In this document: positions 3,001-59,782 of the stretch, one piece after another
How the letters are laid out: every line of letters starts with the position of its first letter
Position numbering within the stretch: position 1 is the stretch's first letter
Source: Phallusia mammillata
Taxonomy: Eukaryota
DNA: 64,000 bases
Direction of reading: 5' to 3'
Assembly (NCBI GenBank): GCA_965637545.1
Contig: OZ281501.1
Coordinates: 11,594,001 to 11,658,000, forward strand
Translations under genes and position numbers: made by a program
Notes under the pieces: generated by a model
What the model was told of the DNA's origin: nothing
Database searches by the model: none
Seen by the model: only the letters and a program-made list of their open reading frames with translations

Positions 3001-6000
3001 CGATGTCGCTGATGTTCAGCCTGAATCCGTATATGCAGTTGTCGTCTCAGCTCTAGGTGACGGAGGCCAGCAAGCCTCCAGCGCTGTTATTAGCTGCAAA
3101 ACTCCAGGCAAAGGTATTCTGTTTTTACATAAGTAATTTTTTCGTATTTTAACCCGCCATTATATTTCAGTACCGGGACCACCTAATCGTCTGGCATTCC
3201 AAGTTCTCTCCCCCACTTCACTACATTGTTCGTGGGGTGAACCAGCTGTAACGCACGGAATAATCGTCGGCTATGAAGTCGTTTACAAACCAACTGGTAA
3301 AATATACTTATAAGGTTTAATCTACCTTGTATACCAAATGTCATTGGAATGTCGAAAATATGTCAAACTCTTGCTGAACTTTGGCTGTGTAAATACGCAA
3401 TATAGATATTTTGAATCTAAATCCATAATACTGATTAGTTACAGAACTGAAAGAAAATACTTTATTCTTTTGTAATATTTTTGTACAGTTTAAGAGCGTT
3501 ATACAGATGTTAGAACTGCGAGTCTTTGCCATTTCGGAAGGTTGCTTAGAGTTTTAATCTGACTCTTTTATTGCCAGATGATAGCGAAAAACAAGAACCG
3601 CCGGTAATGATCAAAATTCCGGATGGTCATTACCGTTCCCTGCTGGTGGAGAATCTGCTTGAAGATACAACTTACATGTACAGTGTTAGGGCGCAGAACA
3701 GAGCTGGTACTGGACCACCGAGGGATGCTACTATGAAGATTGAACAAGTGGGATCCAGGCCACCATCAGGTAAAAACTAATCTTGTAATGTTACGCAATG
3801 TCCACCATGAGTAATTGAGTATGTATTACTTCGTTTCTTTTCACGTTCTGAAAATAGATGTGTATGTTAAAATGACTTTTTTGTAACTAGTATTTGTTTT
3901 CAGCCATCTTCCTGGATGAAGAGAACATGAAAGCGATACAGGAGCAGATTGCTTTGGAGGAAGCTGTAAGGAAAGCTAACAGAAGTCGAAATGTGTCCAA
4001 CGTGTCGGACGATAGTGGAACAAAGGTATAGTATTGGCTGCATGTTTTTATACCATTATATTGACTGATTTCGTTAACCATGTTTTTTTATGTTAATAGT
4101 GTAAAAAAATAACTGTTTATTTTAGATATCAACTACTGTACGCCATGTACACGAACCATCAATGGAAACGAAAACCAAAACTGCTACTAAGACTAGGGTC
4201 ACAAGGTACACATCTAATATTGCGCAAAAATGCATTACGGTTTTCAGTTAAGAATACAACCAATAAATGAACTCAACGTTAAGGTACATTCACAAAGATG
4301 GCCAGACCGATCCTGAGGTTGAGACGGTTGAATACGACGGAAGGTTATCGCAAGAGGAGCTTTCAAAGTTGGCCGAAAACAGTCAGCGTATAGAGGTAAA
4401 ATCACCACCAAAGCAGTATAGTTAAATCTTAGCAATAAAACCGAAGTTTAAAATAAAGTCAATCCACTAAACGGAAACAAAAACTAAACCACAAAAAATG
4501 TTCTTCTCACAGTGTGGATCGCCGCTTCAGGTAAACAAAACACAGTTTATGTTTGAATGTTGTTTTTCGACTTTATTTTGTATTTCGTATTTTACACTGG
4601 CATGGAAGTTTCTTATATTCGCCTTGGTGCAGTTACACATAACGGGGGACACCAGTGGTGTAAACTAACTGTGGAATGCGTTTTTTGATTATCCCGAAAA
4701 GTTAAAATGGTTTAACCTTTGTTTGTTACAAAGCATGATGCTCGGTCAGTAACAAAGAATGTTTTCAGTTTCTGTTGAACAGGTGTGACATAACTACTGG
4801 GACAAATATTTTTTAGAGAAGCGTGACTCTGTTTAGTTGTTCTGTGGTTTATTGTTGCTAACTGCGTGGTTTGCATGATATTAAAGAATACATTTTTGGA
4901 AGAGGATTGTGTGGTTTCAATGTTAACATCCTGTCTAATGTATTCAACAGTAATCATAATTGAACATATTTGTATGATACATATGCGATTCGCGCTAAAG
5001 CGCCAATAACCTCAGCCATTTTTTTAAACTTCGTGTATTTTCAACAGGTGCAAGTGATTTCATACAACACGTCCACTAGCAGCGCCACTGGGCCGGGTTA
5101 TTCGTCTCAGACGTCGACCACGAGCAAGCCACAGTCAGAAGTAGGCTACGTGAATCCTTACCCACAGGAATACATGAACACTGATGTGCGAAAGGACGTC
5201 TCACAAGACACCCAGGTGTTTACTGATGTCGAGGAAACAACCGACGGAGATGTCGATGTAAGTAAAATCACACAATCACAGAAAGAATAAAAATACATTT
5301 TTGGAGTACACATGCTCTTCTAAAGATGTAAATGTTACATTAAAAACTAAGCTTTGGCCAATATCACTACGACGTTATTTTGTGCCGGCTGTCGGGCATT
5401 AAGAAACAAAAGCGACGCATTGACCAGACCACTTCATGTGTTTATGTTAGTAATCCCGGCATTGGTAGGCTTTCAAGTTTTTAGTTTTTCAAAGATTTGG
5501 TCCATCATGAAATGCACAATTATAACTGCATACCGGCCACAGAGAGCAGCGACATCCGCTTGGAAAGAACCTCTTATATCTTGAACTAAGCAAACCGGCC
5601 AAAGTTTCCTGAACAGATCCGATAGAAGTTGTCAAAACCCTGCAATTATAAAACGACTACCGTATAGCAGGAGGCGTTATATTTGGTATGCTGGGAACTT
5701 TATTTCTCCGCGCGCCGTTACCCAACCAATAGTTACACCCGCCCACCTACTTCACACCACTGAAACCGAAGCGTTGGGTTGAATGACGCCCAAATAATTA
5801 CCCTGTTGTGGACATTTGCATCTCCTCGAGGCCGGTCAGTGACGTCTGTGGCTAGGCAATTTGGTACCGGTCTTACTGGATCACACCTTCGAAAAGCCCC
5901 ATTTAAAATACAATGCTAAAAATCGATTTGAAACAACGCCAAAGTTTACGTAATCGCGTTGTCTTGGAGGGCGTGAGATCAATTATTAGGTTTGGTGCTT

Positions 6001-8224
6001 AGATTATTACAAATTTTATCAGTTAATCTACCGGTCATGACAAATTATAATTGGACCACACAGTTAACTACACATCTGACGTTGGTACTAACTAATATTG
6101 CAAAAGTTCTTAACTGGGGGTACGTATATACCCTAGGGGTGCAAAACACCAAATAAGGGGTACGAGATAGAGTTTCCATATTAGGCTTTTCTGTCCAAAA
6201 TTATTGTTTTAGTGTGGTTTAGAATATTTCAAATAACATGCATAAAACGCAACTAAATCTGTAAAAAGGCTGTCAATTGGACTTCAGAATGTTATGTCAA
6301 TTACTATTTCAATTGACTTCCATCAGTTATTGTAGGCAACGACTATGCAGGTATTTTGCAAAAGCTTAACAGTACGACGAGCGCCCACTGAATTAATGTA
6401 ATAAAAAACTGCAATTTACCACTACAATGACGCCCTTAGTACTCCTATCCCTTAAAATGTTCTATTTTAAATTCTCACGCAGCAATTTTTCGTTTACTTA
6501 AAAGAGGCGGCCGGGCTTTGAAGAACACAGCCATAGTGTTTGCAGACGTGGCGCCAGTTCCCTGATGCAGCAAATTCGCTTTTCAATTAGTTTTTCCAGG
6601 GCACATAAACGTTAGGGTCGGCCAAAAATATTGTTCGTGTTCTACGATATTTTTTATCGATAAGCTCAGATAGTGAGTATTTCGTATCGTTCTCACTATC
6701 ACTTGCTGACAGAATGACAGGACTAGAGTAAACCGGTTTTAAAACGAGACATAGCCCATATCCGCACAAAATCCGCAACATTTTTGGTGAAATCGTATTT
6801 TGGTGCAAGTTGCCGCAAATTAAGATCGCAGATTGCAAGTTACCGCACATTAAGATCGTAAAAATTAAACAAACGGTAAAGTAAACAAGCAAAAATGTTT
6901 CGAAACATTTACTGCACTAGAAAAAAAAGTCACCAATCAACTTTGCAGTTTTACCACAAAAAAATTGTGCAGAATTCTTCGCGTAAATAATATTGTTTCT
7001 GAAATGATGACAGTGCACCAAACAGCTATCATAGCCTCTAGCAGGACTAAGAACGTCAGGCATTTAATTTCCGTTGCCAACAGATGTCTTATTACGACCA
7101 CGATTTTTGACATCCAGTAATCATTGCGATTGGCAACATTGAGCGCCAATTAAGGTCATGCATTCGCTTAAAGTTAAACTTAAGTTAACGCCTTTTCTCA
7201 ACCCTGCGACGTTTCAAAACTTGCAAATAGTTTGCAAATAAATCTTGACCAAGCCCAATATCGACTAACCGCGGACCTGGGAATTAACTGAAAGTTAAAC
7301 AGCACGTTAGTGTCGTAGATCTTAACATTAGGGAATTAGCTTTCAAAACGATCGCACTTTTTCCATCCCGAGAAATGGTAATCGTTTCCGTCGACTTCCA
7401 GTGCCGGGTACTAACAGTCCCTAAAAACAGTTTATTAACATCCCACGTTCTAAATACACACCCACGTGACATGGCGCGACGTGCTGAATTGGGTTTGGTC
7501 GTAGCAATTTGTGTGAATGCCTAATGTCAATGTCAACATAAATTGCGCATTTAGTCGTAAGTGTAAGTTACTAGGCGCATCCGCGGTTTAAGGCAACGTT
7601 TTGTGACTTGTTTACGAACGAGTCCAGTTGTACGAAACCTGACATTTATTTTGATGCTCACTTTACAATTTATTTGCATGTTGAACTTCGCAGTCCTAAT
7701 CATCCTTCAAAACATTTAAATTGTTACGAGTGGTTTGTTAAAATAAGTTTGAATTTCTATTTTCAAATCTTGACCTTTCGTGTGCTTCAAGTGGCCTATT
7801 ATAAATTGTTAGGAAATTTGTGCTGCATACCAGCAAACATCCGAGTGTTGTTTATAGTATTTAGCTATTATATCATTGTAATATCATTGGGTATTCTCCC
7901 ACTTTAAGTTGCAACAATGTTATTGACCAGCACAGTAAGATACAGTTTGATGCACAGTAAAATGAACTTTTTTTTGCAAAAACGAATATTTTTTGTCTTT
8001 ACTTAACAAAGACAATTTTGAACATTGTAACACCCTTGGATATTTAACAAATCAAACTGTTGTTGTTGAACGGAAATTGCTTGTTTTCGAAGGTTACGAC
8101 CATCACCAAGACGTACAGAACCACAACAACTGAACGTCGATTGGAAACCACTTCAGGAATGAAGTCGATCGTGCTTGCTCCAGACGGAACATCAATCGAG
8201 CAACAATACGGCGACCAGCAATGA
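5..8224 (+). CDS. ITGB4: Integrin beta-4-like protein, cytoplasmic 3' part (at least 3 Calx-beta domains, one FnIII pair, Thr-rich tail); 5' end lies outside the window
   Basis: Hand-joined GT-AG exons 5-892, 1225-1584/1605, (1777-1800), 2536-2636, 2930-3113, 3171-3296, 3578-3769, 3904-4025, 4126-4205, 4284-4395, (4513-4530), 5048-5257, 8093-8224 (TGA). The Calx-beta motif V.VD.FTR.NTA..G..Y/F.E..G...F..G occurs three times. The second FnIII (PGPPNRLAFQVLSPTSLHCSWGEP...LLVENLLEDTTYMYSVRAQNRAGTGP) closely resembles the second FnIII of vertebrate beta-4 as recalled. Calx-beta followed by FnIII is the beta-4 hallmark. The ectodomain is not visible. Confidence 0.8.
670..729 (+). repeat. Coding poly-serine tract between Calx-beta domains
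   Basis: RRRSSASSSSSSSSSSSSSSSSSDED is encoded by mixed TCN and AGY codons. Confidence 0.85.
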
Positions 8225-9780
8225 GTCGAGCAATTACTCGACAACCACTCGGCTCCGAACTAACCGCTGCAGGCAAACGCTATTGGTGATGCTCGAAAAC
8301 AAATCTGAGACTAATAACACGTGCAAGAGGCGGATCACTCGTTGGAAAAGCTAAGATGGTTTATCAGTTAAAATTGGGCCGTCGGCGTGGAGCCTTGAGT
8401 GCCCTGTTGACAACCTCATCCTCGGATTTACAAGTTACTGCTTTTATTACCACTACGTGTTCACACAAGTAGCAAGACTTCTTTGAATTGACCGCCAAAA
8501 GGGTGATGCCTGTCTTCTCGCACTTAACGCCACTTTACGTTGCCTCATTACATCACGCGCACCTTAAGCTATTAACGTACATTTCTAAGGCTCGAAAGTG
8601 ACGCTCAAACCGTGTCATCTTCAGCTATGGTACGAAGTGGGAGTCGTCCCATTCAGTCCAACATAAGATTGCCACCTTGTCACAATTAACTGCGCTCTTT
8701 CGCACGAGTGATGATCCGTAAAACACAATTGGTTCCCATTTTTGTTTGGGCCTCCCGCCTCGATTTCGTTTTGTTTAAACCAAGCCCATGGGAACTAAAT
8801 TACTTTTTTCGCTTTCAAGCAGGCAAAATATAGTACAATACGCAACTGTTCCTTATTACAATTTCCGAATATTGGCAATATATGTGTACTAATATCTACA
8901 CAAGTTTTATTCCTACATTGCTATTTTACCCGCCCCGACGTAAATGCATGTGATGTATGTGAGGATAAGATGTACATATCTTGCGTGTTTTTTAATGGTA
9001 TTCGTTGGAAGGTAGAGCCATGCTTTGAAGCACTGCCAAGGCTAACATTGTACAAACGCCAAGGCGAAAATTGTTAATCCCAATGTTTTTCTACTATCGC
9101 AGTTGTACAAAAATGTGTTGCATGAGATTTTTCGTGTGCCTGAAGAATGAAGTACTAACAACGTATTCCCTAATGCATTTATTAGAGTATTAGCGCTAAT
9201 GGATTGTTGGATTTTTGCGAAGCTTACATTACACCATGCTATAACGGTGAAAACGTGTGCAAGAAGTTGGCAGAAAATTAAATAGGTGAAAAGAAAGTCA
9301 GATACCGTTGGATCGTATTTATACTAATTTGCTATACCAGACTGACCACGTGACCAAAGGGTTTTCAGTTTAACGCTTGTCGACAAAACTTCAGTCAGTT
9401 ACTGCTCTTAAGCTTGGGTCTGCGAGAGCAAAATTCCTTACGGTTTCAACAAATATCTTTGAACACACCAAACTTCCGTTACAATGCGGTACATAGTATG
9501 TTTTACATTCCGTTTCAGGTAAAATACCATTCCTGTCACATTACATAGTTCGGTATAACGCCTTTAATAGGCCTGGCGTCCTGTGAACACTATCACATAG
9601 ACAAAAAGCGCTGATTCTGTTTTCAATGAGTCAGTTTTACAAGATCCGGTCCTTTTTTTAACAGAGTATCACCAAATAGACTTCAATTCATGCGTCTTGC
9701 GTCAAAAGCAGCAAAGATAACAGTTCAAAGGTAAAGAAATAATTGTGAGAACTACTGTAACAAAGGCAACTAAACACGTA

Positions 9781-9868: not shown

Positions 9869-10695
9869 ATAAGCGTGCATATAACCATGGTTTTCTGTTC
9901 TCTTCATAACTCTACCCGCAAGTGCAAGACCACTATTCAAAGCTGAGTTCAGAAAAAAAGCTAACAAAGAAGTAATGTCAGTGGTAATTTTATTGTGAAC
10001 ATTAAATTCATCTGTGCCACTTGGCATCTAACGATATGATATATTATTCGCAAAATAGAAATGTGTAATCAACACTTTGTATTGACAAAAAAACACAATG
10101 AACAACAGTGTATAAACTCTCGTCGGAATGTTTGATGTGGCCTAAGTCAACCAGTTATTAAATCGAGGCTGACAATAGCTGTAAAGGTCACACGTATTGC
10201 AACTGGGTGTTAAAGATGCTAATATCAAATTTGAGCCGAACCAATGGTTGCCGAGCAGCATTTAAGCAAATTTAATTATATTAAATCTTTTTGCAAGAAT
10301 ACAAAACTTAACAAACTATTTCAATGAACGTGGATTGTTGTGAGCCTTATGGCAGGTGCAATGAATGCTTCTCAGTATTTCGAAACATAGATAAAGACGG
10401 AAACACAGTGTGCAAATAAAGAAGATAAACAGCAGTGAACGAAAAACAAGTTACTCATTGAAAACAACCGAATACGAAATACGAGTGCGGTGAGAAATTC
10501 ATAAACATCAATTAATGCCGCGCTTTTAACGGCAAAGCTCTTCGGTCAATCTTATCTCCGATCTATTATTGCTACAACGTGCAATTAAAATATCCATTGA
10601 GAAGTGCATCGTGTGAGAATAGGTTTTTCGTCGATGACCGACCGCCGTAGGGACATGTGGGTTGGGTGGAAATAGAACTTTCGCGTTGTTGATCA

Positions 10696-12808
10696 TCATA
10701 CGTAAAACTCCACACAGCCGTTCTCCTCGCATGACTTTGCAGCTCCCTCTGAGATTCGATAATCGACACTTTCCGGGTTTGTGGTGTGGTGACCACTATA
10801 GCAGTGACCTGGAAATCAAATAGACGTATTAACATAATGGCCTATTTCCAACACCTGCTGTCTACCCCTATACTGAAAAGGTATTGGCACTCCTTTCCGC
10901 CAATTAGGTTAAAGGTCGGGTGCTATTAAAAAGTGTTCTGCGAGACTAGTGCGCCCTGGTACCCGGTTTGTAGTGAGACATGCCGCATACTTCCCGGCTG
11001 ATGGCAAGAAGCATTAAGCGAATTCCGATCGGACAGTGTTGCCAAAAACGAAAGTTTCGTAAATATTATTCGGCCATTATCACCTCCAACTTGTCATCAA
11101 CACCAAAAAGTGTCGTCGCTAGGACCATTACGGCCAATCAGACCTGTTGCGGCGGCCCGCCACTCTGTAATCAAATCGCGCACACTCCCACCTGTTAGAA
11201 GTGAGTTTGTCGATTCCTCGTAGAAATCCATTTTAAGGAGACGAAATCCGGTCTTGCAGCATTGACACTGGAAGTTTGCTCCCTCGTTATCCTGGCCCAA
11301 TTTATACACCATCGACTCGGGATGGGGCAAAAAGCACCGGCCGCGTTCATTCGGGTTATAACTCTGTAACAAGCAAATTTACAGTTTGAATATGCAACTA
11401 ATGCAAAGCTTACATAAAGTAACCTTTTGGACAATTCATTTACGGCCCTAATGTAAGTTTAAGTATAAAAATATAAAAACTTCATTTAACACACCTTGTG
11501 GCAACGGACGCAGTGTGACATAACTTGCTTCGCAACAGTGTCTGGGATTAGTACAGAAAGTGCTTTGATGCATTTCGGGTCTTTGGAATCAAGTTTTTCT
11601 CGCAAAATTCTCTTGAGCTCTTTTGCGCTGCAGCCCTCCAAGTATTCATCAATCCGAACAGCATCGTTGATGAGGGATTCGACTTTGGGTATGGGACTGC
11701 TCGAGGCATTTGATCCCACTGTGGAAACCGATGTCCGCCTATCATGGATCTTTAATGACTGAAGATCACCGATTGTTTTGGAAACTCTCGGGACAGGCAC
11801 CGGGGCTGGTACGGTGGGTTGAGGACGTTGAAGAACATGGCGATGGCCTGGATAAGTTTCCTGAGTTTCGAGCATCGGCTGGGTTGTGTTTGCAGCATAC
11901 GACTGATCACTTGGAAAACTATCTTCGTCTGCATCAAAGTCGATCTCAGTAGATATGACGTAGTCGGCCACAGCAGGGCCTTTGACTGGTGTGAAAATAC
12001 TTGAGCTGACATCTGACAAATCGCTACCACTAGTTAGTCGCTGATTTCGGGGAACTACCGGGGTAAATGCGGACTTTCGCGAACCATCACTTGAAATCAG
12101 AGGCGATGGGGTTTTGTGTTCGGTCGGGTAAACCGCAGGAACGCGAATGGGACTGACTTGTGTGCTGTGAGATTGAAAGTTGTAAGGGGAAAGTTGTTGT
12201 GGAAGGTCCTTGTGAGTCTTTGTGAGTTTTAATGTTTTCGGCTTCTTCAATATTCCTCGCTTTCCGGACTGAAACGATTCGGTCTCGCTACTATCAGCAT
12301 CGTTGTAGTTGCTAGAAGCTTTCCAATTTTTAGAGAGGTGCAAGGGGTCGTAGTATGAACCTCGGTTGTCGAATTCGTTGCCAACGTAGCAGTAGCCACT
12401 TGCGTCGTCGTCTGATTTTGTAAATGACGGTGTTGGCGAGGGGGTCATAGATACTGAGGTCATAGCAGAGCTGGGATCGACGTATTCTTGATGCTGCGGA
12501 TGATCGTACCACAAATTGTGTTGATGGGCTTCCGTAACATGTTGCATGCGTTTGCCGTGGGCGACCCGGGAGGTATAGGCGCCGTGTGGGGCCGCGTACA
12601 GATGGAAGGCTTTGTCCGATGTCATTTGCTTTAGAGGTGAATTAGTACCGTCGTCACTGGAAGTTGTGGTGGAATATCCGCTCTCACAAACGTCGTTAAA
12701 CTTCACCTTGCGTTCGCTGATCTCGACTTGCCGCAATCTTTTGTTTTTTTGATGGTTTGCGTTAAGGTGCTGAAGCATTACGTTACTGGTTTGAGATATA
12801 GACGTCAT
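10696..12808 (-). CDS. Uncharacterised ~532-aa protein: low-complexity S/T/P-rich region plus a C-terminal Cys/His (putative zinc-binding) domain
   Basis: Exons 12808-11495, 11363-11192 and 10808-10696 join in frame with GT-AG introns (1599 nt). The C-terminus reads HCVRCHKSYNPNERGRCFLPHP...FQCQCCK...GHCYSGHHTTNP...SCEENGCVEFYV*. An AG acceptor lies 2 nt before the ATG, so an additional upstream coding exon is possible. Confidence 0.85.
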
Positions 12809-13440
12809 GCCTATAAATGCTGCAAAACACAAATTGATAAAATTAAGTATTGCAAACTCAAAGCCAAAAAATGCGATTTTTACAAAAAGATTAAGCTGGA
12901 ACCTTATTTAAAATTTGCGAACGCAATAGTAGCCTACAGGATCGATACTCAAATATCTTTTGCATACTGATTCTTGCCATGCGTATCTTGGAGTTGTTGC
13001 CGTATAATTTAGAAATGATATCCCGGCGAAATAAACGTGACCAACAACGGACGCAATCCAAAATTAGGTCTGAAGTGCACTTAAGCCTACACACTGTGTC
13101 AAATGTTGTGACACAGCGTGCCACTCTCACTTGGGCGCTTGTGACTCGTACCACTTATGTGGCAACCAACTGGTTTCAAACCACGCAAAATCAATTGTCA
13201 ACAAACACTTTAGCCACACTAAAGCTGGGAATGATCTTTCTCCACTGTTACTCATGTTATACATAACTTTCACACCATTTTGAATCAAAAATGTTTATTT
13301 CCACTTCAATACCTCGCCAACATTATATTTTGCAAAGCGTTGATTCAAACGTCTGCTCTCGCGGTCAAAGAATTCTGTCTGCCACCCGCCGGGGCGTAAC
13401 AGGCCGCACGAATGAGGTTAATTCGGGATGGCGTGCGACG

Positions 13441-25052: not shown

Positions 25053-25839
25053 AGAAGTCACCAAACTCGGACCCGTCGGTTGAAATTAACCGTTGAAAGT
25101 TAGTTTAATACAATATTTTCCGCAACAACATGTAAGATTAACTTCACCTAGTTTTACAAGGCGCATAAAAATTCAAAAATCGTTTGTTACGTCACAGACA
25201 TTACTAAAAGTATCAATGACTTTGTTATTGTTCGTGAATAAATATTTGATCTGTTGATTGTGATGCAATAAATGACTAATGCAAGCACATGAGATTTTTC
25301 AAAAATCCACACGATTTTAATTTCTCACGAAATCACTATTCAAACTAAATAAGATTGCAGTATACCTTTAAGCTCCCGACCAAATCGCTTCACAAAATCA
25401 TTTCGATGAAAGAATTTTTTTTTTAAAGGTTTGTTTTGTCATGTTTAACCTAATGACGTATTTTTCAACGTAATATCGTCGTTATTGCTACTTTTCGCTT
25501 TTCAGATGAGGTTGTGGAACTTGTAAGACTGATTCTAGAAATGTATGGTTCTGGTTCGGTCTGAAGCCAGAAAAAGATTCCTCCAGTGAGAAAAATCTAG
25601 CGGGTATGGTTTTTTATTTATTTTAGGAACGCTAGACACTTTTGTTAGCATCACATTGTTTTACAAGCTTTTGACTACTTGTTGACAATAAAAATTTCTA
25701 ACATTAAGACAGATTGGTATAGCTCTTAAACAATGTCTGTAAATTAACTACGTATGTTTTATGCGCAGGTGGACTGCTTGTTGACCCTTCATACAGGTGT
25801 TGGGTAATCACTCACCCCACCGACTCACAGTATGTTGTG

Positions 25840-26649
25840 ATGCCCTCAAAAAATGTTATACTATACCAAACCGGGCGCCCGGTTCGTCAACCGTCAATGT
25901 ACTTGAATATCTTCATCAAAGCCCTGGCAAATGTGACAGTTTGTGGGGTTCTGGGCTCTGAAAAAGGGCAAGCATCAAACCAAGTACAAGATGCGAGCAA
26001 GGTTGAAAAAGTGAAAAGGAAATCGACAGTTAACGATGATGTCAAGGTGTTGAAAAAATATCCGCTAAAAAGAGGGGTAATGAAGGTTTTAGTTTCAGAG
26101 GTCGACAGTCCACCTGAAAAGAGGTCGACAGTCCACCTGAGGAGAGTAAGGTCCATGCCACAATCGATGAAAAAAAAACAGGTTGACTGTCCACTTGAGG
26201 AAGAAGAAAAACAGGTCGTCTGTCCACCTGAGGAAGAAGAAAAACAGGTCGACTGTCCACCCGAAGAAGAAGAAAAACAGGTCGACTGTCCCCCTGAGGA
26301 AGGAGAAAAACAGGTGGACTGTCCAGCCGAGGAAGAAGAAAAACAGGTCGACTGTCCACCAGAGGAAGAAGAAAAACAGGTCAACTGTCCACCCGAGGAA
26401 GTAGAAAAACAGGTCGACTGTCCACCCGAAGAAGAAGAAAAACAGGTCGACTGTCCCCATGAGGAAGAAGAAAAACAGGTCGACTGTCCACCTGAGGAAG
26501 AAGAAAAACAGGTCGAGGAAGAAGAAAAACAGGTCGACTGTCCACCTGAGGAAACTGAGGTCCATAAAATTGCAACCCATGACACCAGCAAAGCAAAGAA
26601 AAAGAGAAAAAATAAGCGACGTTGTTGTAAGTGTTGTTGTATACAATGA
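25840..26649 (+). CDS. Orphan acidic tandem-repeat protein with a polybasic + Cys-rich CaaX C-terminus; start uncertain
   Basis: The frame is open from the acceptor at 25768 to TGA at 26649, with the first in-frame ATG at 25840. It contains (VDCPPEEEEKQ)n with synonymous codon variation in this frame and ends KAKKKRKNKRRCCKCCCIQ*. A probable upstream exon lies at 25506-25603. Confidence 0.65.
   Translation: MPSKNVILYQTGRPVRQPSMYLNIFIKALANVTVCGVLGSEKGQASNQVQDASKVEKVKRKSTVNDDVKVLKKYPLKRGVMKVLVSEVDSPPEKRSTVHLRRVRSMPQSMKKKQVDCPLEEEEKQVVCPPEEEEKQVDCPPEEEEKQVDCPPEEGEKQVDCPAEEEEKQVDCPPEEEEKQVNCPPEEVEKQVDCPPEEEEKQVDCPHEEEEKQVDCPPEEEEKQVEEEEKQVDCPPEETEVHKIATHDTSKAKKKRKNKRRCCKCCCIQ
26182..26556 (+). 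repeat. 33-bp coding minisatellite (10 full units, one internally deleted unit, one partial unit)
   Basis: Consensus GTCGACTGTCCACCTGAGGAAGAAGAAAAACAG. Two diverged shorter relatives lie at 26101-26146. Confidence 0.95.
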
Positions 26650-47510: not shown

Positions 47511-50500
47511 TCACATGTCTTGCGTTCGCACAATTTTTGGCTCGCAGAGTCGTTGAACAAAGGCCTCTCTGTCAGCTTGGGAAAGGTTCAATAAATTGTC
47601 ACATGGACAGGAGGATTCTAGAAGACATTGACTACGTGTTGTTACGCCAGTGCGTTTTGCAAATTGGAAACCCGATCTTTTCGACGTCGTTACAGACGTG
47701 TTGTTGTTGTTACTTGCATTGCGCATCGGTGCCATCTCTTTGGTCGGTGAGTTCAGTTTGCTCGCGGACGACGACTTGCTGCCAGGCAACAAGCCGACGA
47801 GAAGACTTTCCAGCGGACTTCTTCGACTTGCGACTTCTCTGTAAAAACTGGATCGCAGAAATCGAGGATACGAGTCGTTTTCCATGATGTGAAAGATTTT
47901 TCGTTGAGCTGATTCGAACACGTCGTTAGGCAAGGGGTCACCGCATGTCACGGACAAGGCGACTTGTCGTTGTGTAATGTGGTCGATATTTACCTGCATA
48001 ATCAAATAACGTTGTTACGCTTATGATGTAATAACAAAGTTCCCAGTATAACGCACAGTCGGTAACCATCCAAACCAAATCGTATTGCATCGTTTAAAAC
48101 AAACTAGCAATTCACAGAAATGTTTTAGCTGGTGTAGCATATACGTAGACAGTTTACGTGGGTCATTGGTATTTGTTGCGTCTATAAATAACCGTTTGCC
48201 ACAATTTAACGCATTTGATTGCACAGACAAACAAAACTGAATCTAAATGAATTGTATCTAACCCTGCACGTACGCAACGCACACTATATTTATCTCAGTG
48301 GTTTTGTGACTAATCAGCCTCGAGGTTATTCGGTGGCTAACGTGACATAACGTAAAACACTTCTGGTGCTACGTGCTATTTTGAACTGTTTTTGTTTTTA
48401 CACTCTGAACTCGGAATGCGGGGAACTATGACTGTACTGTGGAATTGACAGTCAAATGACCCCGATTTCTCAATAAACCCAACACACCAGCAGCGATCAG
48501 TCCTAACCAAATTAGGTTAACAAAACGGGAAAATTAAGAAAATTACCTGGTGGGGAGAGCGGGATGAAATGTACTGCTGGTAAATGTGCTCTCCTTCGCG
48601 AAGTCGCTGGTCAGCGGTCTTCAGTTTTTTGAATTTCTCGCAAGAGCACCAGAACTTGAGATTTTCCGAGCTGTATTCTGAGTCGAGAAAGTCGTGGAAC
48701 GCCATGCGCATTTCTGCGGGAAAGCAAATAGGTTTATACGTTGGTAGAACATCCGGTAAAATATCAAGTAGGTGGATCTCATTACGGTGTGTTGTTTCCC
48801 GGATACCCAAACTCATCTAATAATATTATCTATTTGTGACGCACGTCACTGTACGCCCACTAATTTCACACTAGTTTAGACTTGCTTTTCTTGCGAATGG
48901 ATTACTAAGCATCTTAAAATATTATAGCCATATGGCAGCATCAAAACTTACTTTTGTTATCCAGTGTGTTTAAAAGTGATGATGCCTCATTAGTGCTTGT
49001 GTTTTGTGGTCTCTTCATGATGGCTGAAGTAAAAAATGCCGAAACTGGTCTTGAACGTTTGTTTGAAGAACCAGGTGTATCAGGCCCTCCAAACGTTGAT
49101 ACGGTTTTATCGCGTCTCTGCAGAAAAATATAATGTTACCAGATTGTATTCACTTATTTGTTGGATGATCCCAACCCAAGTTGATACACAAATGTTGTTA
49201 CAATTATTATTCTTTCAACACCTGAGCTAAGGTTTCATCACGCTACGAATTATCTTACCAAAAAGCAACTTAAAGGCAAGTGTAAACTTACGGGTGAATT
49301 ATTTGTCTTCTTTTTTCGAAGTCGGACTTGGCTTGTGCCCTGTAAGTTTAAATCGCTCGGTTCCGACTTCTGTCGTTGCTTAAGGTTCGAAGTGTCGATG
49401 ACAGTTGATACGTCCGAAAGTAGAGGGGCGCTGTGTCTACTTAAGTTTTGCTTTGAGGTTCCGAGACAACTCGTATCTCTTGGAATCTGACTGTCGCTAA
49501 TCCGTTTTTGCTCAAGATCGTTTGACAAGGCTTCGTCTTTTTGACCAGCGTACCAGGTTGTGCGTCGTTGTGACAAACTGTCCTCTACGTCAAGAGTCTT
49601 TATTGTAGGAATCACTGATTTTTTTTCAACTTCTTCTACTGAAGTCAGTTTTCGATATCTACCGTGGCTACAAAAACAAAACAAACATCTGTATTTAGGT
49701 TTGCTCAATAAAAAACTATTTTGCTAAGGCTAGCGCTCCCTAAGGCAGCGGATGCGAACTGACGCGTCTGGTGCGCAACACGTCGCTATATATAACCTCG
49801 CTCTGACGTCACGAAAGCGGCAGACGGTGAAGTCGAGTGCTCGTCATGAGCTCTAGGTAACGCAACAGGCGTTTTCAACAAACACTTGCGTGCCTGGAAT
49901 GCAAATCAAGCTCATGGAAAGACGCAGCGTGACGTGCATCCCCTGTCAACTTTCTATTGTTTTTGTAAATTTGAAGCAACCGCGCAACAACGTATTGAAA
50001 GTTGCGTCATGCATTGTTGTGGCGTTTCTTCACCTAAATAACTTCGGGTTGCTGTTTCTAAGTCATCAAAACACTACTGCAAATTTACATGAAAAACATA
50101 TATCGAGGAGAATAGCCAAAATATAGAAACTGAAAACACTGTTTAAATTTGGTACATTAAACAGTTTATATAGGTATCATACGCATGAAATACGTATGGA
50201 GTTCGTATTATGATCCCAACACGTTTTCGACGCATATGTTTCCGAACTTGTTTTAAGCGTATTTCCTTATCTAGCTGGCATGTATTGGTTGTTTGGCATG
50301 GTAGCCATCCACTCAAATTTTGATTACTGGATGTTTTTCAGCCAAACGGAACACTTCCAAAGTCGATTACCCGAGGTCATTGCCTCCAACGTGGCCAAAA
50401 CACGTCACCACCAGTGGCCAACATTGCTGCAAAGCTACTGGGTCGAAGTGAGCGTAAACAACCCAATCTTGGTATTATTTAAAGACTGTTTATGATTTCA

Positions 50501-57600: not shown

Positions 57601-57944
57601 GGTCATTTGCCCGGAGGTGCTTAAACATTTGTGGGTTGACCGGTTTCGAATGTCGACTTCGTTCAAATGTAGCAGACACTTTTGTTTTATTTTCGTTATC
57701 TGCAAAACTGCACACTACAAACTATAATCTAAGGTAGCCACAGTTAATAGCACATGTCAGGATTTTACCTGCCAGCATTTCGCATCAAGTTTAACCTGCA
57801 AGCTTTAAGTTCGAAAAATAATATTTCTTTGTGATAGTAACTGTTTTTGTAACAACAATTTTTGTCCTAGGTAAGGAAAAATGTGACTACCGCAGTTAAC
57901 GTATTATTAAATGGAGAGGCTTACAACATGAGTCTGGTTCTAAG

Positions 57945-59782
57945 ATGGCATATGACAACTACCAAAGGCACGGATGTGCATCGAACGTTTTCATTCTAAA
58001 CCGAATAAAGAGAGTTGCAAAATTCGTAGTATGTCTTTTGACTTTGACTTACGTCTGCAAATCGGCAATGACCTTTCGGGGCCAGCAAACTCAAACCGTA
58101 TTAACACTGGATTTGAATTCCTGGGAACTGTTAAAGGAAGGGGATCATTTTGAGCTTCGACCAAATGAAGACGTTTCTCCGAAGTTCCTTTCCAATAACA
58201 AACCATTTAACGTGGCCAAACAGTCTACAAATGTAATTTTGTCAACGGCCGAGGCACCACTAAAAGCTAAAACAACGACAAACAACAATCTGCCTCCAAC
58301 AGAAGAAAATGTTTTTTTGAGAGATTTATCATATTCAGTGCTTGGCAAGGACGGAATAATACAAAAGGCAGAAGATTATCAGTATATACTGCTTGTGTGG
58401 TGGCCACCAGCATACCTTGCTAAAGACCGAAATTTTCTGGAAAGAAATTTTCAAGGGGTCTGTGGAAAATGCCGATTAACTATGGACAGACGATACCTAA
58501 ATAGAAGTGCGGTTGTGCTGTTTGACAATGTACCGACGAAAGAAAATCTCGACGATCTTCCTTTGGATATTTCGAGGTTTGAAACATAGCTTATAACGCA
58601 TTATTAGAGGACACAAACGTTTATTTTACCATTGAAAAACCAAAAATGATAAGCAGCTTGTTCTTTTATTTATTGGATATAATTTGCGTGAATATAAGTT
58701 TATGTTTTTATTAGTGACAAGCAACCTTACTGTGACGAAAACTATGCCAAAGGCATAAAACATAATTATTTTGTTATTAAACATTTCGACAGTAGATTTG
58801 TCCTTGTCGTTGGAAGAATGGCGGTCAGTCGACTAATAGCGTTTCTGTTTAAAGTTTAAACTAATATTTTCGGAGCATAAACGTTTGTTTAAATAAATAT
58901 TATAGGCTCATATAGTACTAAATTGACTAATTTTTCAGGCGTGAGGACCAGGTATACGTTTTGTGGCATCGCGAAACACCTTCAAAAACCTATCACCTTC
59001 GAAATTTTATGCGAGGAACATTTGACACCATGTTTAACTACACAATGTCATACAGACGCGATTCAGACATTGTATGGTATCTAGGCAACACCCGGTATGC
59101 TATGAAGACAATGCCGTATCATTTTCTGAACCAACCAGACAAATATATTGACAAAGCGATGAAAGCAAAGCGACAGCTAGCGGTGTGGGTTGTAAGCAAT
59201 TGCAACAACACTAGAGGCGCCGTTGCACGTAAAAACTACGTTGATAAACTAGTGGCTGCTGGACTAGAAATTGACATGTTCGGTAGATGCTTCAACAGAG
59301 CAGTGCCCAAGAAGGATTTCTACGAATTTTTGGCGCCGTACAAGTTCTACCTGGCATTTGAGAACTCGTGGCACTGCCCCGATTATTTGACCGAAAAGTT
59401 TTGGCGCAACGGGCTCATGGCTAACGTCGTTCCCGTGGTTTGGGGTCCGTCAAAGGAAGACGTAGCTGCAGTGGCACCGGAACATTCATACGTACACGCG
59501 GAAAATTTTGATTCCCCAGCGGATTTGGTGAAGTATTTGCATGCGTTGGACAATGACAATTCCCAGTACAGAAAGTTCTTCAATTGGCGACGCCGTGGTT
59601 TTGAAGAAGACAATAACCAACCGATATCCCTTATGAGGCCTGGTTATGAACCTGCCATGTGTAAATTATGCATGCAACTAAACAAAAACGGCGGTAAGCT
59701 GCCACCTAAAACGTTAAAATCTTCAATGTCGTGGATATTTGGCGACGATCCCCAATCTGCATGTTTGTTAGATACTAAATAA
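57945..59782 (+). CDS. Alpha-1,3/4-fucosyltransferase (GT10 family), 491 aa, type II membrane protein
   Basis: Exons 57945-58576 and 58939-59782 join in frame (1476 nt). There is an N-terminal hydrophobic anchor, and the motifs FNYTMSYRRDSDI, AVWVVSNC and YKFYLAFENSWHCPDYLTEKFW (the alpha-1,3-FucT motif). Confidence 0.95.

Follow-up and report, generated by a model that had tools for sequence, protein, structure and literature searches.

The window considered here, a stretch of 64,000 nucleotides of the Phallusia mammillata genome (assembly GCA_965637545.1, contig OZ281501.1, positions 11,594,001 to 11,658,000 of the forward strand), carries on its minus strand the gene of a 532-residue protein encoded by a trans-spliced mRNA. 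The proposed function, to which a probability of about 55% is given, is that of a non-catalytic scaffold with a D-domain-like dimer and a three-zinc, CHORD-related fold, which would recruit protein phosphatase 1 (PP1) and dock on PDZ proteins. The model proposes that three predicted helices pair, that the zinc domain holds out the C-terminal tail and would probably also offer a surface for binding, and that in tunicates the disordered N-terminal arm recruits PP1. With one PDZ tail and one PP1 arm on each of its two chains, the dimer could gather PDZ scaffold proteins into clusters and deliver the phosphatase to them.

The minus-strand exons 12808-11495, 11363-11192 and 10808-10696, spliced in silico, give one 532-residue frame ending in HCVRCH...GCVEFYV-stop, and this product equals a database protein (P0001, UniRef A0A6F9DII, 'Uncharacterized protein LOC100183384', source label Phallusia mammillata). 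The gene is laid out as follows:

12819..12821, minus strand: trans-splice acceptor, AG at 12821-12820 and first exon base 12819, from contig ends in six runs
11495..12808, minus strand: coding exon 1, residues 1-438, from contigs and the database protein
11364..11494, minus strand: intron 1, 131 nt, GT..AG, phase 0, from contigs
11192..11363, minus strand: coding exon 2, residues 439-496, with Cys448, His452, Cys471 and Cys474, modelled as a three-stranded sheet and a helix
10809..11191, minus strand: intron 2, 383 nt, GT..AG, phase 1, from contigs
10696..10808, minus strand: coding exon 3, residues 496-532 and the stop, with Cys498, His503, Cys522 and Cys527
10055..10695, minus strand: 3' untranslated region, at least this long, with contigs extending to 10055 and 10064

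Contigs from eight runs, in two sets of four, were examined. Both introns are skipped in contigs of six of them, three in each set, from four studies (P1, P2, P3, P6), and these spliced contigs show no alternative joint within the gene, which bears out the three-exon splicing assumed in an earlier reading of the sequence alone (the sequence-only reading). Of the two remaining runs, one covers the region unspliced, as DNA would, and the other has only three short pieces. The spliced contigs of the six runs stop at 12821, and two (X3, X9) have a loose end that matches, in reverse complement, the leader given for ascidians in Table 1 of PMC1488885. The mRNA thus starts with this leader, added by trans-splicing. 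The ATG at 12808 is accordingly the first of the trans-spliced mRNA and the gene model is complete. A genome search found no paralogue. Seven database proteins (P0002, P0003 and P0006-P0010) are truncated just past HCVRCHK, the result of gene callers continuing into intron 1. These relatives have the intron at a common position, and it conceals the domain from searches.

The Cys/His domain that closes the protein begins at the end of the first exon:

11495..11515, minus strand: start of the Cys/His domain, HCVRCHK, residues 432-438, with His432, Cys433, Cys436 and His437

A family profile built from eight close domains was searched against 1.84 billion representatives and found 106 clusters at E <= 0.001, 71 of them at 1e-10; it is the final 160 residues of the protein that belong to this family. 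The counts that follow refer to a family alignment of 77 hand-picked rows, made of 74 of the 106 clusters and three earlier matches; 32 rows were left out, mostly single-exon fragments and including eight full-length fungal-type rows. Across the 77 rows, near-fixed residues stand at twelve positions (His432, Cys433, Cys436, His437, Cys448, His452, Cys471, Cys474, Cys498, His503, Cys522 and Cys527); these would suit three tetrahedral sites, and the domain is likely to bind three zinc ions. Cys473 is conserved in 20 rows and His497 in 12, and His502 is also variable, so that the motif of the sequence-only reading, which had included all three, is right as to its letters and reduces to C-x2-C and C-x2-G-x-H. 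That reading had also begun the domain at 11530, and the conserved unit begins about 55 residues earlier. Following the site assignment of the RAR1 CHORD, site A would be Cys433/Cys436/Cys448/His503 and site B His452/Cys471/Cys474/Cys498. Site C would be His432/His437/Cys522/Cys527, pinning the C-terminal 25 residues onto the domain start with the last five pointing outward, and the role of the zinc would be structural. Among the 73 rows that have the N-terminal part, 65 keep His432/His437 and both late Cys, and the other eight lack both late Cys and at least one of the two His. These eight form approximately one group on the tree (two changes), so that the joint loss is near one event, and one of the rows left out, P0084, keeps in its first copy both His without the Cys pair (by eye). 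Even so, the joint loss suggests that the four residues make up a His2Cys2 site of their own, linking the two ends of the domain.

It could also be argued that the metal is iron, in an Fe-S cluster or as heme bound through C-x2-C-H, and that the domain has a redox-sensing or catalytic role. The domain start does read C-x2-C-H, the motif of heme c, and one weak Pfam row is a cytochrome c (E 0.057). However, the protein shows neither a signal peptide nor a sign of export, eight rows lose His432 and/or His437 with the rest kept, ligand sets of four that mix Cys and His are in keeping with structural zinc, and Arg435 is the sole other invariant polar residue of the alignment that could hint at an active site, all of which makes iron highly improbable.

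As to the fold, a wide fold search gave a single structure extending across the core, the RAR1 CHORD, and the match is weak. Together with the eight inner ligands, which follow the CHORD order C,C,C,H,C,C,C,H, it makes an unrelated new type of zinc finger an improbable reading of the core, and the modelled fold is likely to be related to CHORD. The sequence-only reading had proposed a possibly undescribed metal-binding family; it was right that the family is unnamed, and probably less so as to a new type of core. Its observation that the spacing matches none of RING, PHD, FYVE, LIM and C2H2 agrees with sub-threshold Pfam rows only, such as FYVE_2 (E 0.028, in 7 of 77 rows), and the confident match to a characterised domain that would speak against it was not obtained: no Pfam family matches the 532-residue query, and no solved structure is related to the domain by sequence or by Foldseek. 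A metal-binding fold of its own, unrelated to CHORD and Btk fingers and with the ligand order acquired by convergence, nevertheless seems unlikely. The query has no PF04968 row and its hhalign probability to the CHORD profile, 1.1%, lies within that of shuffled sequences. For the Btk-type zinc finger (PF00779) there is no Pfam row and no entry among the matches listed by the fold search, and a lead in the Atlas at 13% of members.

The conserved unit includes a helical module before the zinc domain and a short tail after it:

11540..11683, minus strand: three-helix module, residues 376-423, predicted D-domain-like homodimerisation element
10699..10710, minus strand: EFYV, putative class II PDZ-type ligand at the conserved chain end

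The structure model places helices at 376-392, 395-407 and 411-420, with a predicted local distance difference test (pLDDT) of 89-98, and the module is present in 62 of the 77 rows. Its best fold match is the beta-TrCP D domain, and pairing of two chains through these helices is the prediction for the C-terminal unit: the homodimer model scores 0.57, against 0.24 for the best control, with an interface at 379-424, a score that may reflect likeness to solved complexes. The protein itself has no PF12125 row; a PF12125 search of the genome yielded another locus only, and the family's own helix profile scores at shuffle level against the partial exon of that locus. A tight animal-group subfamily (P0021-P0025) has lost the helical module; its members still have zinc domain and tail, together with an SGY[GD]S motif.

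All 55 animal-group rows end five residues past the last Cys, 52 of them in Val. By the ligand classes of PMC8786283, 49 of the 55 tails are class II (hydrophobic-x-hydrophobic) and two are class I, in keeping with the suggestion of the sequence-only reading that the terminal FYV is a class II motif. The non-animal rows have no such fixed PDZ-type end. In animals the free C-terminus is therefore a candidate ligand, likely to dock on PDZ proteins.

The 370 N-terminal residues are rich in Ser, Thr and Pro and are modelled without structure, so the description of the protein as otherwise low-complexity applies to them, but not to the conserved helical module at 376-423 or to the conserved short motifs that the arm itself contains:

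12698..12712, minus strand: RKVKF, putative RVxF-type PP1-docking motif, residues 33-37, a consensus match
12668..12685, minus strand: ESGYST, residues 42-47, in 12 of 14 tunicate-like rows (1.9 expected)
12344..12355, minus strand: YYDP, residues 152-155, in 12 of 14 tunicate-like rows
12245..12256, minus strand: GILK, putative SILK-type PP1-docking motif, residues 185-188, in 12 of 14 tunicate-like rows (0.2 expected)

Identity of the arm is 27-37% in the four tunicate-like pairs measured. The SILK pattern is [GS]IL[RK]. ESGYST resembles a beta-TrCP phosphodegron, or it may be part of the PP1 contact, and YYDP resembles an SH2 site and is a possible phosphotyrosine site. Of the RVxF consensus patterns of PMC4794898, RKVKF matches the short and the five-position form and does not match the six-position one. 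The strict pattern over its last five positions occurs in 8 of 14 tunicate-like rows (0.3 expected) and in 6 of 6 Nematostella-group rows (0.09 expected), and in none of the 24 other animal-like, 10 Sanderia-group and 7 non-animal rows; the full six positions are found in one of the 14 and five of the 6, respectively. PP1 is likely to be recruited via the disordered arm, and this docking would be a lineage add-on of tunicates and one anthozoan group, not the ancestral job of the family. The genome contains an intronless 329-residue frame of a PP1 catalytic subunit (L007:1477-2466, G000:C4; STPPase_N and Metallophos), possibly a retrocopy, and two other PP1-type loci that match in shorter frames.

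A different division of labour has to be weighed, in which the tail is structural, the binding of protein, RNA or lipid falls to the zinc domain itself and the N-terminal motifs serve mainly turnover, as a phosphodegron, or nuclear import, as basic clusters. Model confidence of the tail is higher when the helical module is included, the Smaug D domain makes a peptide groove with its neighbouring domain, the anthozoan RVxF lies within a basic run, and fungal-type members retain helices and zinc ligands with neither the tail nor the PP1-type motifs. A packed strand, however, needs no fixed free carboxylate, and the chain end is fixed in every animal-group row, with two of the tails outside class II being class I; moreover, two distinct PP1 motifs co-occur in tunicates. 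This alternative to the PDZ-docking, PP1-recruiting scaffold is accordingly held to be rather improbable, if the strongest of those considered.

Of 30 clusters looked up among the 106, eight could be named (Owenia, Lineus, Nematostella, Sanderia, Trichoplax, Powellomyces, Ceratobasidium and Cyathus), and members from Ciona, Clavelina and Styela were found in separate searches. The likeness to unannotated fungal and invertebrate proteins, which the sequence-only reading had pointed out, is thus real: an unnamed Cys/His family without a Pfam match occurs in both. No vertebrate, insect or nematode is among the named members, which are a minority of the rows, and the family was likely lost in vertebrates. 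No relatives were confirmed in viral or prokaryote contigs, and a literature search, which did not cover supplements, found no paper on the family. Four fungal-type members (P0084, P0092, P0102 and P0131) have two tandem copies of the Cys/His domain, as is usual in CHORDs. The nearest clusters by language-model features are an unnamed Basidiomycota cluster (0.92) and DUF8254 clusters (0.86); DUF8254 (PF26782) is found on 12-14% of the members of Ascomycete clusters automatically named 'C2H2-type domain-containing protein'.

A broader, tentative and on balance doubtful proposal is that of an ancient eukaryotic family, lost in vertebrates, that combines a D-domain dimer with a three-zinc CHORD relative clamping the C-terminus through an added His2Cys2 site, and that would have become a bivalent PDZ-anchored scaffold in animals and an undescribed PP1 targeting subunit in tunicates and anthozoans. 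The protein as proposed here would extend the small CHORD/Btk clan by a three-zinc branch and be another carrier of the D dimerisation domain, and an unannotated single-copy gene in the sister group of vertebrates would gain a function, the targeting of PP1 to a PDZ scaffold, that can be tested in Ciona, Nematostella or a basidiomycete. The natural two-zinc and three-zinc forms within one family would also give a direct view of the gain or loss of a metal site.

In the rest of the window, an opposite-strand neighbour (4267-9222, plus strand; three candidate exons without Pfam match) seems to end near 9222, according to a contig of run X2, converging on the 3' end of this gene, and a short repeated element lies at 9548-9660, where many DNA contigs diverge and depth jumps. 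An open frame at 25723-26649 (plus strand) contains about ten copies of a 33-nt repeat encoding an acidic Cys-Pro-Pro unit, then a basic run and several Cys at its end; it has no Pfam match and may encode a lipid-anchored acidic protein. Ordinary neighbours are an RGS-domain exon (47511-48014, minus strand) and a family 10 fucosyltransferase (57900-59782, plus strand).

Compared with known systems, the closest relative of the zinc domain would be CHORD (PF04968; RAR1, Chp1/CHORDC1 and melusin; PDB 2XCM), with which it shares, besides ligand order, the C-x2-G-x-H end and, in the model, a three-stranded sheet with a helix and a returning strand, and a predicted nested two-zinc core. Spacing differs, being C-x4-C-x13-C-x2-H-x14-CC-x15-C-x4-H in CHORD and C-x2-C-x11-C-x3-H-x18-C-x2-C-x23-C-x4-H in this family, where an adjacent CC as in CHORD is confined to nine non-animal-type rows; the family also has four extra ligands and a 29-residue extension. 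Ligand order and topology would allow a true CHORD-type co-chaperone, attached by its zinc domain to the N-domain of Hsp90 like RAR1, Chp1 and melusin, but this is quite improbable. The His188/Asp189 loop of RAR1, which touches the Hsp90-bound nucleotide, is invariant in CHORDs, and His188, at the hairpin tip contacting ADP, has no counterpart here: in the matching hairpin, 458-467, no position has His within its four most frequent residues, and of the two only an Asp is present (45 of 77 rows). In animal members the domain is single, not tandem, no CS domain was found, and a separate tandem-CHORD gene exists elsewhere in the same genome. Rex3/REXO1 also has a single CHORD-like domain (PMC12129344), accompanied by a KIX bundle and a DEDDh nuclease, whereas this family has no catalytic domain. 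With the D domains of beta-TrCP, Cdc4 and Smaug/SAMD4 (PDB 2P64, 2P63 and 8OIJ) the helical module shares about 50 residues, three helices and, in the model, a symmetric interlaced dimer, yet it is followed by the zinc domain instead of an F-box or PHAT domain. Finally, PP1-interacting proteins such as metazoan Rif1 (PMC3410773) likewise have RVxF before SILK and both in a disordered arm; here the putative motifs lie about 150 residues apart and are limited to tunicates and one anthozoan group.
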